From assembly GCA_965200895.1 (NCBI GenBank), contig CBDAVM010000002.1, positions 1,701,089 to 1,765,088 on the forward strand: a DNA stretch of 64,000 nt, in the 5' to 3' direction. Origin of the DNA: Vicinamibacterales bacterium. Lineage in GTDB: Bacteria; Acidobacteriota; Vicinamibacteria; Vicinamibacterales; UBA8438. Positions 54,888 through 64,000 of this stretch are shown here, piece after piece (within the stretch, counting starts at the first letter, position 1; every line of letters begins with the position of its first letter). Below the pieces are notes generated by a model. That model was not told the DNA's origin, ran no database searches, and saw only the letters and a list, made by a program, of their open reading frames with translations. Made by a program: the position numbers and the translations under genes.

Positions 54888-56156
54888 ATGCTGGCGCTCG
54901 CCATCTCGGGGGCGGTCTGGTCCGCGGTGCCCGCGGTGGCGCCCGCAGCAGCGGCGTGGGCGGCGCTCGCCCTGCTGTGGCCGGGCATCGGCCGCCGGCA
55001 GCAGGTGCAGGCGCTCGTGTTCATCGCGATGGGGCTGGCTGCGTTCCTCTGGGGCGCGGGCCGCGGCGCAGCCCTGCGGTTCGACAGTCTGCTGGGCCAG
55101 AACCAGCCGATCCTGTCGATGCTGGCCTCGATCACCCTGCTGCGGTTGTTGAATCGCCCGCCGCGAACGGACGAACCGGTGCTGCCGCGCGGGCTGGGCG
55201 CCTATCTGCAGAACATGCTGGGGGTGCACGCTTTCGGATCGGTCATCAACATCTCGGCCGTCATCATCATGTCCGACCGGCTGGCGCGCGTGCAGCGGCT
55301 CGGGTTCACGCAGGCGCAGCTCTTCAGTCGCGCGTTCAGCGCTGTCGCCTTCTACTCGCCGTTCATCGGCGGCGTGGCCCTGGGTCTGTCCTACACGCCC
55401 GGCTCGAATCCGCTGGTGATGATGCTGTTCGGGCTTCCGCTCGCGGCGGCCGCCTTCCTGTGGCTGTACTGGTACGCGCGCAGCGGTCGCGCCGAAGACA
55501 TCGAGGGCTTCCGCGGCTATCCGCTGCACCCGCAGGATCTGAAGGTGCCGCTGGCGCTCGGCGCCGGGGTGCTCCTCGCCTACATGACGATGCCCGGCTA
55601 TTCGGTGCTGACGCTGATCACCATGGTCACCCCCGCCGTGGTCCTGGGCGTCCTGCTCAAGCGGCACGGCCCGCGCGGTCTGCGCCCGGCGTTCGCGGAG
55701 TACGTTCGGGAGCGCGCACCGCAGATGGGCGGCGAGCTGGCGCTCTTCCTCGGCGCCGGCGTGCTGGCGGCCGGTCTGGTCGCTGCGGCGGCCGGAACCG
55801 GCGACCGGGTGATCTTCCCGGAACTGGACGGATTCCTTGCCAGCCTGCTGGTGCTGGCCTTCATTGCGACGTCGATGGCCTGCATCCACCCCGCAGTGCT
55901 GGTCGGCGTCACCGTCGCGCTGGTGGAGACGATCGAGTTCGACCCCACGCTGCTGGCCACGACGTTCGCGATGGGGTGGGGACTGGGGTGCGCCGTCAAT
56001 CCCCTGTCCGGGGTCAATATCGTGCTGGCCAGCCGCTACGGCGCCGACAACTGGCGCATTGCGCGCAGCAACGTGGCCTTCAGCGTCACGCTGTACTTCG
56101 TCGCCGTGGGGTTGCTCTACCTGTACGAGTCCACGAGGCTCCAGTCCGGGCCCTGA
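54888..56156 (+). CDS. Polytopic membrane protein, function unknown (possible transporter)
   Basis: About 11-12 hydrophobic segments across 422 aa; no motif recognised. Start set at the first in-frame ATG after the DUF3604 stop, but it could lie further upstream. Confidence 0.55.
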   Translation: MLALAISGAVWSAVPAVAPAAAAWAALALLWPGIGRRQQVQALVFIAMGLAAFLWGAGRGAALRFDSLLGQNQPILSMLASITLLRLLNRPPRTDEPVLPRGLGAYLQNMLGVHAFGSVINISAVIIMSDRLARVQRLGFTQAQLFSRAFSAVAFYSPFIGGVALGLSYTPGSNPLVMMLFGLPLAAAAFLWLYWYARSGRAEDIEGFRGYPLHPQDLKVPLALGAGVLLAYMTMPGYSVLTLITMVTPAVVLGVLLKRHGPRGLRPAFAEYVRERAPQMGGELALFLGAGVLAAGLVAAAAGTGDRVIFPELDGFLASLLVLAFIATSMACIHPAVLVGVTVALVETIEFDPTLLATTFAMGWGLGCAVNPLSGVNIVLASRYGADNWRIARSNVAFSVTLYFVAVGLLYLYESTRLQSGP

Positions 56157-56239
56157 GACGCAGCGTCAATCGGCGGACCGCCACGCGGTTCGATGGGTGT
56201 CCTGGTGTTCATCGTGTGAGATTCCCCGCTGACGGGTGT

Positions 56240-56616
56240 TCAGTTGACCGGGTTGTCTGGCGCGGTGCGCTCGAGGATCTGGAGCAGCAGACTGCGCATC
56301 TCCCGCATCTCAGTGCGGACCTCGCCGATGTCGGCACGCATCTCGGCACGCATCCCGTGCATCCCGGTGCGCAGCTCGGCGCGCATCTCGCGCATGTCGA
56401 TCTGCATTTGGTCCATCCGGTTGTTGGTGTCGTCGATTCGGGCGTTGAGGGTGGCGTTCTGCTGGAACATCATGCTGATGAGGTAATGATCGTGCGGACG
56501 GCGATCTCGCCGTCGCTTGCTGGCGGGAATGGCCCGCTGCGTCGTGCCGAACACGGCGTGGACGGCCTCGGCGTCGCGCTCGCGGCTGAGGATGGCGTCG
56601 AGACTTCCGTGTTCCA

Positions 56617-56620
<4 letters not shown>
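56240..56620 (-). CDS. Met/Arg-rich coiled-coil small protein (126 aa), translationally coupled to hsdR
   Basis: Its ATG overlaps the hsdR TGA (ATGA at 56620-56617). The C-terminal half [49 protein letters not shown] shows a heptad-like repeat. No family recognised. Confidence 0.55.
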
Positions 56621-59756
<3,136 letters not shown>

Positions 59757-59757
<1 letters not shown>

Positions 59758-60263
59758 CAACCAGCGGCTCCGCTGTGCTCGAGCACGAACCGCGCTCGCT
59801 CACGTCGCAACATCTCGTACGGGGTCATGCAGCGCACGCCGAGGGCGACGCAGGCGTTCGGAATCTTGATCTTGCGGTCGGTATTTGCGGGAACCTCGTG
59901 CGTCACGACGATGCAGTCGTGAGCCACCGCGTGCGCAACGAGCCAGTAGTCAGCGACCTGCAGGAAAGTCCCAACCGCCGCGGACGTATAGCCCGCGCCA
60001 CCGGCCCAGTCGCTCACGGTCTGAAGCGTACCGAGCACGGAGTCGTCCGGCCTCAGAAAGAAGCCGCTGCCGCGCTCGGCAGCCCATCGGGCCAGATCGT
60101 CGTCAACGGCATGGAGTTCATCGGCAACCTTCTCGACGCTCGCCACCGTTCCGTCCGCGTTCCTGCGGATCAGCCAGTCCCAGAATGCGGGGCAGAAGTC
60201 GAAGCCGTAGTGGAGATTCTTGGCCTGAATGAAGACGTTTGCGTCGAGGAGGTACCGGATCAC
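59757..60263 (-). CDS. DUF4411 PIN-like domain protein
   Basis: [31 protein letters not shown]...SVEKVADEL...LARWA...[20 protein letters not shown]...KIKIPNAC follows the DUF4411 pattern. Its GTG start overlaps the ImmA stop (GTGA). Confidence 0.8.
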
Positions 60264-61414
60264 GACAACGCCCCGACTTCACGTCCGAGGCGGTCGAAGG
60301 TCTCGGTCCTGGAGATACCAAGCATGCGATAGGCGTCCCGATAAAGCGTCTGCCCCTCCAGCGTGCTGACCACGACCGCCTGAACGAACCGGCGGCTCAT
60401 GCGAGAGAGCGTCGTCCGATAGAAGTCGCCTCCGCCACTGCCGCGCTGTGCAAGTTTGCGCAGACGGGTCGATTCGTGCGCCCAGGCCGCGTCGAACCTG
60501 TCGCGGTCAAGCCGGTTCGCATCAAGCAGGCGCCGCAGAATGACCAGCGGGCTGACCTTGAACGTGCGCGCCAGCCGGGCGAGTGCGTCGGGAAGCGCCT
60601 CGTCGTCGCGCAGTTCGGCCCGCAGTGCGTCCAACGGCGCCAGCAGCTCGGCCGCGACGGCGTTGCACCAGATTTCTTCACGCCGCTGTTGCTGAGTCGG
60701 CGCCGCCTCGCTGTTCGACAAGGCGGAGGCGCCGAGCCAAAGATGCGCAAGCTCGTGGGCCAGCGTGAACATCTGCGCCGCCTTCGTATCGGCGCCATTG
60801 ACGAAGACGAGCGGCGCCAGGGGGTCGGACAGTGCGAAGCCGCGGAACTCCGCGGGATCGAGCCGGCGGCTCGTGTTGCTCCCGACGACCCCGCTCACCA
60901 TGACGAGCACGCCCGCGTCCTCGGCTTGTCCGATCAGCAGCCGCAACGCATCGGTCCATGTCGGGCACGCGTGTCGGGCGGCCAGATCGACACCGAGCCG
61001 GGCGCCGATCATGGGCGCGACGGTCTCGGGCGCGATCGCGATGGTTGCGCTGCCGACGAAATCCGCGGCCGGTTGCCCGGCAATGCGGACGAACTCGCGA
61101 TACCAGCTCTGCCGCTCCTGGCAGGCGTGGATGGTGTCCAGCAGGTCAGGGCTCGGCCGCTCCAACGCCTGCCCGGCCAGGGTGCGGAAGTCCGCGATGG
61201 GCAGGGACTCTTCGGGAGGCTCGCTGAGGAACAGATAGCCGACTGGAACGTGGACCGCGCGGGCGAAGTCCTCAACCTGCCGCAGGGTGGGCCGGACCTC
61301 GCCCGCTTCCCACGCCGGCAACTTCCTGAACCGCGCCGCAAGACTCTCCGGCGCGAGGCCGGCGCGCTCGCGCGCCCAGCGGATCAGCGCCGGATTGACG
61401 GGCGCGCGCATCAT
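60260..61414 (-). CDS. XRE-type HTH + ImmA/IrrE family zinc metallopeptidase
   Basis: ATG 61414 sits 6 nt after GAGGGAGGTG. N-terminal HTH (LIRWARERAGLAPESLAARF...WEAGEVRPTLRQVEDFARAVHVPVGYLF). HEXXH in FTLAHELAHLWLG, with a downstream E in CNAVAAELLAP. Confidence 0.8.
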   Translation of the reverse strand: MMRAPVNPALIRWARERAGLAPESLAARFRKLPAWEAGEVRPTLRQVEDFARAVHVPVGYLFLSEPPEESLPIADFRTLAGQALERPSPDLLDTIHACQERQSWYREFVRIAGQPAADFVGSATIAIAPETVAPMIGARLGVDLAARHACPTWTDALRLLIGQAEDAGVLVMVSGVVGSNTSRRLDPAEFRGFALSDPLAPLVFVNGADTKAAQMFTLAHELAHLWLGASALSNSEAAPTQQQRREEIWCNAVAAELLAPLDALRAELRDDEALPDALARLARTFKVSPLVILRRLLDANRLDRDRFDAAWAHESTRLRKLAQRGSGGGDFYRTTLSRMSRRFVQAVVVSTLEGQTLYRDAYRMLGISRTETFDRLGREVGALS

Positions 61415-61440
61415 GGTCGCCACCTCCCTCAAGTGTCTTC

Positions 61441-62565
61441 TCATGCCTGTCCGTCGTCGCGAAAGACGCTTTCCACGTGCGGATTCAGCAATCTCCAGCG
61501 CTGGCCGGTGCGCTCGAGGTCCCCCGTCAACACCACCAGCGCCCGGTCCTTGTGGGCCTGAACCGCCCGGTCGTAGTCCGCCTGCTCCAGAACCGCCACG
61601 ACCGACTGCCGTTGCCCGTCGATCTCGGTTGCGAGACGGATCGTGCCGTCGTCCTCGGTCTCTCCGCGTTTCAGGAGCCGAACGAATCCGTGGAGACGCA
61701 CGTCGGGCCGGGGGGCGCGCTCGCGGAGCGACCGGGCCGCCTCGCGCAGGATTGGCGCATCGGCCCGACCGAATCGAACCACCGTCGTCGGCGCCGCCCG
61801 GGGTCGGGTCCGGGCCCACGAGATGCCCACGTCCAGCGTCGGGAAAGGCTCGACGAGCCGCACCAGCGCCTCCCACAGATTGGCGCTCACGCCCCGCGCC
61901 ACCGCGCCCGCGAAGGTGCTCCCGTCGCCGGCTGTTGCCGATTCGGTCGCCTCGCGCGCCGCCGTGAGCGCCTCCGCCAATCGCCTCGTCATCCGGCGTT
62001 CGATCGGCGCCTGCCGGTCGTCCGGATCCGGAAGCACCCCGGGCATCGGCGGCGGTACGACCGGCGTCAGCAGCGTGACCACGAAACTGCCCTGGTCGGT
62101 CTGTCCCACGCGCACACGGCTCAACAGGTCGCTCGCCGCGCGGTTCGGACCGTCACGGTAGACGGCCTGCGGTTCCCGAAGCGAACAGGCTGCCGACAGC
62201 AGCATGTCGCGCGCACCCGCGACGAGGTCGATGCCGTCGTGCAGCGTCAGGCTGCCGTCGTCGCTCTCCCCGGCGCGAAGGCGGACGACGTCGCGGTCCG
62301 CCGTCACGAGGGACCGGTAGACGGTCAATTGGTCCTGATCGGCGACCTGCGAGAAGGTCTCGACCAGTGTCGCCACGACGTTGGCGTAGTCCCCGAGGTG
62401 AGCCGTGCGCGGGACGATGATCTCCGGCAGCGCCTCGCCGTCGTAGACGTCCGAGTGCTCTCCGTACGGTTCGGACCGCCGCCAGCCGGCGGCGCGCACA
62501 TAGGCGGTGAGGGCGGCCGGCGAGACCGCCCGCAGCGCGTCGGCGTCGCGAATGCTGACCTTCAT
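61441..62565 (-). CDS. Hypothetical protein (374 aa), no recognisable domain; first gene of the ImmA/DUF4411/HsdR block
   Basis: ATG 62565; balanced, non-repetitive composition, unlike the Arg-rich antisense ORF. MKVSIRDADALRAVSPAALTAYVRAAGWRRSEPYGEH...; the stop lies 26 nt before the ImmA start. The first 78 codons are duplicated at 63667-63900. Confidence 0.65.
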   Translation of the reverse strand: MKVSIRDADALRAVSPAALTAYVRAAGWRRSEPYGEHSDVYDGEALPEIIVPRTAHLGDYANVVATLVETFSQVADQDQLTVYRSLVTADRDVVRLRAGESDDGSLTLHDGIDLVAGARDMLLSAACSLREPQAVYRDGPNRAASDLLSRVRVGQTDQGSFVVTLLTPVVPPPMPGVLPDPDDRQAPIERRMTRRLAEALTAAREATESATAGDGSTFAGAVARGVSANLWEALVRLVEPFPTLDVGISWARTRPRAAPTTVVRFGRADAPILREAARSLRERAPRPDVRLHGFVRLLKRGETEDDGTIRLATEIDGQRQSVVAVLEQADYDRAVQAHKDRALVVLTGDLERTGQRWRLLNPHVESVFRDDGQA

Positions 62566-62592
62566 CAGATCACTTCTCGTGGGATCGTCGCC
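62332..62592. repeat. Direct repeat copy 1 (5' end of the 374-aa gene plus ~27 bp upstream)
   Basis: Hand alignment of 62332-62565 with 63667-63900 gives 234 bp, no indels and 9 mismatches (about 96%). Weaker similarity continues about 27 bp past the ATG. Confidence 0.85.
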
Positions 62593-62836
62593 TTCCGGCC
62601 CGCCCCGGGCGATCCGCCAGCCTCGCGATCCACTTCCGGTCGAACCTCTGCGACCACTTGTCGACGGTGGTCGTGGACATGCCGACCTCCTGCGCAACGT
62701 CCGCTTGCCTCATGCCCTGGCCGCGCAGGAGCACGATACGGGGCGCGGAGGCTGTCGCGGGTGATAAACGCCGATCCGGTGTCGGAACAGATGCGTCGGG
62801 CCTGTACCCGTTACCTTTCGAGCGAGTCCGCGACAT
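62570..62836 (-). CDS. Small HTH protein resembling the N-terminal DNA-binding part of IS630-type transposases (fragment or exapted regulator)
   Basis: APRIVLLRGQGMRQADVAQEVGMSTTTVDKWSQRFDRKWIARLADRPGRAGR matches the rariVLl..G.s...iA..lg.s..TV.kW..Rf...G...L.DrpR.GR pattern. No DDE domain follows. The stop lies 4 nt before the 374-aa gene ATG. The ATG 62836 overlaps the upstream gene end by 26 nt. Confidence 0.5.
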   Translation of the reverse strand: MSRTRSKGNGYRPDASVPTPDRRLSPATASAPRIVLLRGQGMRQADVAQEVGMSTTTVDKWSQRFDRKWIARLADRPGRAGRRRSHEK

Positions 62837-63569
62837 CGTAACCCTTCCTCGTGACCTCAAACAAGTTCCGAGCATCCCCTGTGGCCCTGACGAAATCGTT
62901 AGCCTCCAGTTCTTCCATCCCGGCGACCCAGGAAGCCACGTCCCTGGGTCGGACGTTCTGAGGAATGAATGATCTTTCACCCACCTGAATAGACACACCT
63001 GGGGAACCCAGACCGCGGCGGTACTTAATTTTTCCGTCTCCGACCGCGGCAGTCCTGAGAATTTCTTTCGCTTCGCGCGACAACGACTTGCTGAGATCGT
63101 CTGAACTGACGAGCAATAGCTGCCCTACCTCGAGGTTGTTGTTCTCGATACTCCTCCCTCGTGCGCTGTCCGCAGCGAGCCGTGCAGTTACTCGCTCCAC
63201 GATATCCCTGTGAAGCTGTTTGAAGTCACTTGGCGTCGCCGTCCCATACTTGATGACAACCCGATGCCGAATATCGAACGGCAACCGCTCAGATCGGGAC
63301 TTCGCACAGATCATGACTACCGGCCCACCCGCGGCGTACGCGAATCCGAGCTCGTACCACACATTCGGGTTGTCAGTCGTGATGTCGGCAAGACAGATGT
63401 CGGCGTTCCGTATTCGATCCTCGATTGCCTCGATTGGTACATCGACAGCCGGATCGCGATCAACTCGATACGGCTCAACGCCGGCTTCGTTCAGGGCCGG
63501 CGCAAATACTTCGTCGTATCTCTTGTCGTTTTCGTCGTCGAACGGCTGGATCACAAAACACATTGGCAT
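62811..63569 (-). CDS. Low-GC gene: nucleoside 2-deoxyribosyltransferase/TIR-like Rossmann-fold N-terminal domain + unassigned C-terminal domain (252 aa)
   Basis: GAGGAA RBS. CFVIQPFDDENDKRYDEVFAPALNEAG...ADICLADITTDNPNVWYELGFAYAAGGPVVMICAK resembles the D..G/N....E.G.A.A.G.P core of NDT-fold proteins. The C-terminal ~110 aa are unassigned. GC is visibly lower than the flanks. Confidence 0.6.
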   Translation of the reverse strand: MPMCFVIQPFDDENDKRYDEVFAPALNEAGVEPYRVDRDPAVDVPIEAIEDRIRNADICLADITTDNPNVWYELGFAYAAGGPVVMICAKSRSERLPFDIRHRVVIKYGTATPSDFKQLHRDIVERVTARLAADSARGRSIENNNLEVGQLLLVSSDDLSKSLSREAKEILRTAAVGDGKIKYRRGLGSPGVSIQVGERSFIPQNVRPRDVASWVAGMEELEANDFVRATGDARNLFEVTRKGYDVADSLER

Positions 63570-63624
63570 GGCATTCCTCAGTCAATACGAGTCCACACTT
63601 CTTCGCGGCGAACGACGTTGGCCC

Positions 63625-63900
63625 TCAACTTGCGACCCGCCTCGGCAGCAAAAGGAGTGTGCACGCGTCCTGATCGGCGATCTGCGGGAACGTCTCGACC
63701 AGTGTCGCCACGACGTTGGCGTAGTCCCCGAGGTGAGCGGTGCGCGGGACGATGATCTCCGGCCGCGCATCGCCGTCGTAGACGTCCGAGTGCTCTCCGT
63801 ACGGTTCGGACCGCGGCCAGCCGGCGGCGCGCACATACCCGGTGAGGGCGGCCGGCGAGACCGCCCGCAGCGCGTCGGCGTCGCGAATGCTGACCTTCAT
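63625..63900 (-). pseudogene. Truncated duplicate of the 374-aa gene (first 78 codons, then unrelated tail)
   Basis: MKVSIRDADALRAVSPAALTGYVRAAGWPRSEPYGEHSDVYDGDARPEIIVPRTAHLGDYANVVATLVETFPQIADQD, then ACTLLLLPRRVAS and a stop. Similarity to 61441..62565 ends exactly at the repeat boundary. Confidence 0.7.
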
Positions 63901-63929
63901 CAGATGATCCCTCTCGTGCGAGCGTCGCC
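63667..63929. repeat. Direct repeat copy 2
   Basis: See 62332..62592. Confidence 0.85.
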
Positions 63930-64000
63930 CCGGTCCGGCGGGTCGGCCGGCTGGGGGAGTCGTCGAGCGTGTCGTCGGGGAGGTTGGGATTGAGACAGGC
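63915..64000 (-). pseudogene. Second hsdR 5'-region fragment (continues beyond the window end)
   Basis: 63959-64000 aligns with 59550-59591 (35/42 identical by hand). The minus-strand translation ACLNPNLPDDTLDDSPSRPTRRTGATLAR parallels HsdR residues [30 protein letters not shown]. Confidence 0.45.

Follow-up and report, generated by a model that had tools for sequence, protein, structure and literature searches.

Genes embedded in BREX, DISARM and type I restriction-modification (R-M) loci gave rise to a catalogue of 145 predicted 'phage defence candidates', the PDC systems (Payne, Hughes, Fineran, Jackson; bioRxiv 10.1101/2024.01.29.577857). One of them is PDC-M02, whose PADLOC definition needs two genes, M02A and M02B. 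Two other described systems are close to the locus treated here. SPARDA combines a short prokaryotic Argonaute (pAgo) with a DREN-APAZ protein, and its sensor is the guide-loaded pAgo. HTH-DUF955 (ImmA, COG2856) together with DUF4411 forms a self-contained three-component toxin-antitoxin (TA)-like module with an HTH-protease and a PIN part (Matelska et al. 2017, PMC5499597). We compared with these systems a 64,000-nt stretch of DNA, hereafter the window, from a Vicinamibacterales bacterium (assembly GCA_965200895.1, contig CBDAVM010000002.1; G000:C2:1701089-1765088 in our own numbering). On its minus strand, at 61441-62565, lies a 374-codon open reading frame (ORF) that had originally been placed at the head of an ImmA/IrrE-DUF4411 module.

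This gene is a further member of the already catalogued PDC-M02 family, and it sits in an incomplete, scrambled locus. The explanation that we consider likely as a whole is that of a stranded PDC-M02B gene whose M02A partner has been deleted, with ImmA/DUF4411 as a separate cassette and with an inferred mechanism of nuclease control.

Identity of the gene and its partner

The 374-codon ORF is real, as had been claimed: it is free of stops over its entire length, and its translation begins MKVSIRDADALRAV. Translation probably begins at the ATG at 62565 and not at the TTG further upstream (62697), because an alignment of 85 relatives starts at that Met. Scans of the protein against Pfam and NCBIfam returned no match (the sole Pfam line, SnoaL_3 with E 0.097, is noise), and a profile of the 85-sequence M02B alignment had 0 matches at E up to 10 among all PDB sequences. 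PADLOC-DB identified it as PDC-M02B (PDLC04298, E 1.1e-120; residues 1-370 against profile positions 1-376 of 380), with 38 M02B models in that database matching. The earlier statement that no motif could be assigned is thus right as regards Pfam, NCBIfam and PDB sequences, but wrong as regards PADLOC. The PDC-M02B family comprises 3,393 representatives at 50% clustering (E ≤ 0.001), mostly of 370-390 aa. The protein is also matched by phrog_27927, a PHROG without known function, and the structural model is matched over its full length by a protein of Leptospira phage LE1 (E 4e-21, template modelling (TM) score 0.62). The most conserved M02B motifs of the N-terminal and middle parts are G27-W28, D59-Y60, D92..R95, GQTExGSF (154-161), R190, GVSANLC (225-231) and W250.

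The likeness to PDC-M02 covers the full length of M02B, and the gene lies inside a type I R-M operon, the kind of context from which these candidates were drawn. We regard it as very probable that the 374-codon gene encodes the B (non-nuclease) subunit of PDC-M02 and that ImmA/DUF4411 belongs to a separate cassette. Contig C1 of the same genome has a second full M02B, 93% identical, within a type I R-M locus that is paralogous to this one. There the A+B pair is complete: directly ahead of M02B stands an intact DUF4365 gene (PDC-M02A E 1.6e-55, PF14280 E 6.7e-21), the single one of this genome. The window locus, in contrast, lacks an M02A gene and has only 37 nt of its 3' end left; because two genes are needed, it represents an incomplete PDC-M02. 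Downstream of M02B in the C1 locus (L006 9260-9425), an 88-nt insertion is followed by the ribosome-binding site of ImmA and its first ~15 codons. The remainder of ImmA, as well as DUF4411, has been replaced by ~1.2 kb that include an opposite-strand 349-aa ORF with no family match. As C1 retains an ImmA start after M02B, the ancestral order was probably M02A-M02B-ImmA-DUF4411-hsdR. After the split, C1 probably lost ImmA/DUF4411 and the window locus lost M02A.

The genome also harbors a third M02B remnant at G000:C2:1307732-1308064 (L007 7478-8110, plus strand). It consists of the C-terminal OB part only, is 44% identical, and lies within a 210-aa open frame beside an opposite-strand 597-aa ORF.

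Using an alignment of closer relatives, we collected 80 related loci, one per species genome, in which M02B is 55-79% identical. They come from Acidobacteriota, Alphaproteobacteria, Gammaproteobacteria, Rhodothermales, Spirochaetia, Cyanobacteria, Acidimicrobiia, Nitrospirales, Latescibacterota and others. An M02A gene or gene fragment was detected by tblastn upstream of M02B and on the same strand in 65 of them, at a distance of at most 21 nt in all but five. According to a clade-specific hidden Markov model, M02A is full in 52 loci (53 including L052), while 10 loci have a partial gene, 3 a short remnant and 14 none. Where it is full, its stop overlaps the M02B start (ATGA or TGATG) in 49 of 50 loci. 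A reverse census that started from M02A in metagenome contigs found M02B directly downstream in all 22 contigs that extend past M02A; both censuses were each seeded from one clade. The conserved partner of M02B is therefore a translationally coupled small DUF4365 nuclease, M02A, a stand-alone protein of ~165 aa with invariant D..D and QxK residues. The A-B layout persists in distant relatives. It is found in genes 1-2 of an M. abscessus prophage, where the M02B match is limited to residues 214-359. On a Methylobacterium plasmid (~29% identity), a 173-aa ORF with a C-terminus that looks DUF4365-like by eye overlaps the M02B start. In relatives P0264 and P0268 the C-terminal half of DUF4365 is fused in frame to M02B, although these may be truncated gene calls.

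The M02B copies of this identity range (loci L016-L095) are spread over at least ten phyla, which implies frequent horizontal transfer of the cassette. Many of the records are metagenome-assembled genomes (MAGs) whose names point to shared marine or sponge-type habitats.

The genes found with M02B in the 80 loci were HsdR (41), HsdS (42), HsdM (35) and, after M02B, ImmA (5) and DUF4411 (3). The predicted defence context is thus supported by hsdR; of the neighbors that had been anticipated, HsdR is common, while ImmA and DUF4411 are rare.

Predicted folds of the two proteins

An AlphaFold2 model of M02B, built on the 85-sequence alignment, reached a pLDDT (predicted local distance difference test) of 94.9 and a predicted TM score of 0.89. 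A Foldseek comparison with the PDB listed almost exclusively OB folds, namely SSB, RPA, PriB, the RecG wedge and HIN domains, over 83-100 columns with E 0.016-0.12 and probabilities of 0.9-1.0. The C-terminal part of the model's DSSP string reads E286-299, E307-315, E318-326, H328-339, E343-353 and E356-368. We placed the predicted OB fold at residues 286-368, as this is the sole part of the model with the order strand 1-3, helix, strand 4-5. This C-terminal segment (~286-368) shares the OB strand order with SSB, RPA and PriB at a Foldseek probability of ~1; however, identities are 10-19%, E is 0.016 or higher, and the OB fold makes up just one part of the 374-aa M02B. For residues 1-285, the full-length model matched no solved structure at E < 0.12, and its top PDB matches included no SPARDA or Argonaute chain.

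The C-terminal part appears to be exchangeable. The 752-aa relative P0127 has TPR repeats appended after the OB domain, and in P0142 (453 aa) TPR repeats take the place of the OB domain. A C-terminal ligand-binding module that can be swapped between OB and TPR is what would be expected of a sensor. The sensor-type role in the original prediction is thus suggested by the modelled OB fold and by its TPR replacement in one relative, but the ImmA/DUF4411 partners proposed with it are wrong.

The M02A model (pLDDT 89) best matched the SPARDA DREN domains 9qcc, 9vx6 and 9jsz (E 2e-6, TM score 0.6; for 9qcc_A, Foldseek gave E 1.9e-6 and a TM score of 0.61), followed by Hjc resolvases and EcoRV. An M02A profile searched against PDB sequences gave noise only, and the link to DREN came from the structure comparison. 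By its model, M02A adopts a PD-(D/E)XK fold of the DREN type, which the SPARDA effector nuclease also has. The parallel extends to organization, for in both systems a DUF4365/DREN-fold nuclease is paired with a separate non-catalytic sensor protein, a putative one in PDC-M02. On the other hand, M02 loci contain neither an Argonaute (MID-PIWI) gene nor an APAZ domain, and the guide-loaded pAgo would have its counterpart in a putative OB-fold (or TPR) protein. PDC-M02 would thus work like SPARDA and yet not be a member of that family, since it has no Argonaute and no APAZ domain.

Stranded M02B genes, proposed mechanism and alternatives

The two genes do not persist equally. M02A was never seen without M02B, while in ~27 of the 80 loci, about a third, M02B is intact and M02A is truncated, frameshifted or missing. 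In many of these stranded loci M02A is reduced to its final 10-35 codons, which contain the purine-rich stretch ahead of the M02B start. A junction consisting of the M24B stop, a short M02A remnant and M02B is common to three Rhodothermales loci (L033, L041 and L046). Because the junction is identical, the deletion of M02A must predate their divergence. Their M02B genes differ by a dS of 0.12-0.53 at a dN/dS of 0.16-0.29, no different from M02A-bearing loci with their median of 0.21. In 7 of 10 genomes with a stranded M02B, neither the Pfam model nor a clade profile detected a DUF4365 anywhere, some of these genomes being MAGs of unstated completeness; the Pfam model did match in four other genomes of the same search. 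We also considered whether stranded genes are favored inside type I R-M loci and rejected this (Fisher p 0.26 and 0.46).

The window copy does not look obviously decayed, with only two deviations at 51 positions that are conserved at ≥80%, and a dN/dS of 0.30 against the C1 copy. The deviations are E157D, which is shared with C1, and C231W.

For the function of M02B we propose a role as sensor or regulator, to which we give an even chance. It is suggested by the asymmetry between A and B and by the exchangeable C-terminal module. M02B would restrain M02A, a potentially toxic nuclease. Its C-terminal module would detect an infection cue, most likely single-stranded nucleic acid, and M02B would then release or assemble M02A for indiscriminate DNA cleavage, according to an abortive-infection logic. 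The window M02B could act only with the single M02A on C1, or in a role that does not depend on M02A.

Several observations weigh against the explanation as a whole. The OB-fold matches are weak by E-value even though the Foldseek probability is ~1, and the range 286-368 was taken from the secondary-structure string and not from the alignments. Each of the seven DUF4365-free genomes has one uninterrupted M02B, and two of them are single-chromosome assemblies. Purifying selection after the loss of M02A, together with these genomes, indicates that M02B may have an M02A-independent role, which a simple sensor-of-A model does not explain. In the window copy, C231W falls into the GVSANLC motif, at a position that is Cys in 94% of the relatives. 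In addition, our literature search found no paper that mentions PDC-M02, and hence no experiment on it.

Alternative explanations start from the genes next to M02B. In the original prediction, the 374-aa protein was the sensor or specificity component for an ImmA/IrrE protease and a DUF4411 PIN nuclease. The three genes do share a strand, and the 26-nt spacer between the M02B stop and the ImmA ATG at 61414 contains the Shine-Dalgarno-like GAGGGAGG, as had been noted. The M02B-ImmA adjacency occurs again in L036, L044, L056 and L065, and the ImmA codons kept on C1 make the junction ancestral to both window and C1 loci. However, the scarcity of ImmA and DUF4411 in the census (co-occurrence in ~6% of the related loci) largely refutes such a module. 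The window's ImmA has no PDC-M02A match, and the two genes directly downstream of M02B are a textbook example of the HTH-ImmA/IrrE-DUF4411 modules, which have been described as complete without a third gene (PMC5499597) and of which M02B is no described component. Given that M02B has a different, near-universal and translationally coupled partner, it does not head this module, and ImmA/IrrE-DUF4411 is an independent neighboring cassette in the hsdS-hsdR gap; a three-gene system is most improbable. We assign an equally slight chance to M02B being an accessory of the type I R-M enzyme, for example a modulator of HsdR. About half of the related loci do have M02B between hsdS and hsdR, but in 30 of 79 loci no hsd gene lies closer than 8 kb, and most of these 30 nevertheless contain M02A-M02B. 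Furthermore, pairs occur outside R-M loci on plasmids and in a prophage, and stranding is not linked to R-M embedding.

Two other alternatives concern the stranded genes themselves. M02A and M02B could be a toxin-antitoxin or addiction pair, with stranded M02B genes persisting as anti-addiction ('immunity') genes against incoming M02A. The absence of any M02A seen without M02B, the third of the loci where M02B lacks an intact partner, the frequent 5' truncation or frameshift of M02A next to an intact M02B, the purifying selection that continues after its loss and the genomes devoid of any DUF4365 would all agree with this. For a plain antitoxin, though, a three-part protein of 374 aa with an OB or TPR module is large, and the two censuses are asymmetrical because the locus census was seeded with M02B. 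Overall, we think it unlikely that the pair is of this type. It is also rather doubtful that the window copy is a functionless relic that has been decaying since the loss of M02A. The reduction of M02A to 37 nt, the C231W exchange in the most conserved motif and the scrambled surroundings, in which a second M02B copy is cut short and pieces of an IS-like element and of hsdR are left, could be read in this way. Nevertheless, the ORF is of full length and free of stops, 49 of the 51 conserved positions are retained with one of the two deviations common to C1, and the dN/dS against the C1 copy is 0.30. Position 231 is F, L, W or Y in 6 of the 85 aligned sequences, this copy included, and other stranded copies are clearly maintained. 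Against all these alternatives, we prefer the stranded PDC-M02B subunit as the reading of this gene.

Defence cassettes in the hsdS-hsdR gap

The coordinates of the features in the window are collected in Table 1. Including the DNA past the window end, the order on the minus strand from 5' to 3' is hsdM; a nucleotidyltransferase fused to or abutting hsdS; PDC-M24A (DUF6978); PDC-M24B (DUF1828/DUF1829); the hsdR 5' remnant; the last ~37 nt of M02A; M02B codons 1-78; the 1,064-nt insert; again the last 37 nt of M02A; full M02B; HTH-ImmA; DUF4411; and hsdR. The genes hsdS and hsdM are located just past the window end. The hsdS-hsdR gap is filled by a patchwork of defence cassettes.

Table 1. Features of the PDC-M02 locus in the window (positions in the 64,000-nt stretch)
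Feature	Position	Strand	Evidence
hsdR of the type I R-M operon that hosts all cassettes	56617..59760	-	HSDR_N, SWI2_SNF2, T1RH-like_C
DUF4411 PIN-like gene, ImmA partner	59757..60263	-	PF14367 5.1e-54
HTH-ImmA/IrrE (Peptidase_M78), separate cassette	60260..61414	-	PF06114 4.8e-17; no PDC-M02A match
Intact M02B gene (374 aa)	61441..62565	-	Open frame; PADLOC PDC-M02B; AlphaFold2 pLDDT 94.9; dN/dS 0.30 vs C1 paralogue; C231W
37-nt remnant of the M02A 3' end, with purine-rich stretch and TGATG stop/start overlap	62566..62602	-	Homology to the C1 M02A-M02B junction and to the second copy
IS630-like HTH fragment	ORF 62570-62998, HTH match ~62588-62737	-	HTH_29/HTH_23 ~1e-6
Lower-GC insert between the repeat copies, 1,064 nt	62603..63666	-	GC 0.61-0.67 vs ~0.70 around; boundaries by blastn
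Nucleoside deoxyribosyltransferase (NDT)/TIR-like gene, 252 aa, lower GC	62811-63569	-	Weak NDT/TIR-like matches: Pfam Nuc_deoxyrib_tr 3.7e-5, TIR_2 0.018; PADLOC TIR effector 1.2e-7; phrog_3634 7e-22
M02B copy cut off after codon 78 (codons 1-78 at 63667-63900); 13 unrelated codons and a stop follow	63625..63900	-	PDC-M02B models, N-terminal ~80 positions only
Second M02A 3'-end remnant, upstream of truncated M02B	63901..63937	-	M02A frame ending DARTRGII-stop vs ERSRTKGMI-stop in intact M02A
Diverged hsdR 5' remnant, 162 nt, extending past the window to ~64082	63921..64000	-	L005 9010-9171 resembles hsdR codons ~30-83, 79%

The duplication of the first 78 codons 1.3 kb upstream, which had been noticed before, was confirmed by blastn (62332-62602 against 63667-63937, 93.4% over 273 nt). 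Its 234 coding nucleotides contain 9 differences, 6 of which change the amino acid. As it includes 37 nt upstream of the ATG, the repeat is a DNA segment and not only a coding N-terminus. In the AlphaFold2 model, codon 78 falls into a loop of three residues that separates helix 60-75 from helix 79-87, and strand 91-98 follows. The repeat therefore is a recombination scar and not a protein domain: it begins 37 nt before the ATG, ends in a loop ahead of strand 91-98 and brackets the 1,064-nt insert. These same features speak against the suggestion that residues 1-78 behave as a discrete protein unit. The scar resembles one that would be left by a single-crossover integration or by unequal exchange between two M02B alleles.

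The NDT/TIR-like gene in the insert has a 56% identical homologue after M24A-M24B in locus L017 and looks like another mobile cassette of the array. In both paralogous R-M loci, a diverged (79%) 5' fragment of hsdR precedes the M02 cassette (window 63921-64000 to L005 9171; L006 11085-11194), which suggests that cassettes were acquired through recombination inside the hsdR 5' end.

A second embedded candidate, PDC-M24, occupies L005 9207-10513 (just past the window end, at approximately 64118-65424 in window numbering, minus strand), between hsdS and the M02 remnants, with M24A (DUF6978, E 2.6e-52) and M24B (DUF1828/DUF1829, E 6e-103). After M02A and the hsd genes, M24B is the commonest neighbor of M02B (12 of 80 loci). 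It directly abuts a stranded M02B in L041 and L048, and 5'-truncated pieces of M24B do so in L033 and L046.

Nucleotidyltransferase sequence (Polbeta/NTP_transf_2) lies between hsdM and hsdS at both loci (L005 10416-12296, L006 12349-15995), and a match to an NTase-substrate-binding (HEPN-like) domain was obtained at the C1 locus L006 only, not at L005. This is an MNT/HEPN-type pair embedded in the same operons, where long ORFs merge the pair with the hsdS or hsdM frames. At the other end of the locus, a 130-aa Met/Arg-rich ORF (56240-56632, minus strand) overlaps the hsdR stop and has just weak coiled-coil-type Pfam lines (E > 0.03). A promoter and terminator scan of 56000-64000 gave nothing above shuffled expectation.

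The assignment of this gene removes a supposed new three-gene ImmA/PIN system and replaces it by the stranded half of a catalogued candidate. For the family, several points were not found in our literature search, namely the DREN-like model of M02A, the predicted OB fold and TPR variants of M02B, the observation that M02A never stands alone and the survival of M02B under purifying selection after loss of its nuclease. As a tentative view of the whole, PDC-M02 might be an Argonaute-free DREN-nuclease immune system in which an OB-fold (or TPR) sensor replaces pAgo-APAZ, and M02B might in addition have a selectable function of its own, perhaps as anti-addiction or 'immunity' gene against incoming M02A. 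PDC-M02 is a reasonable test case for the control of DREN nucleases independently of pAgo.

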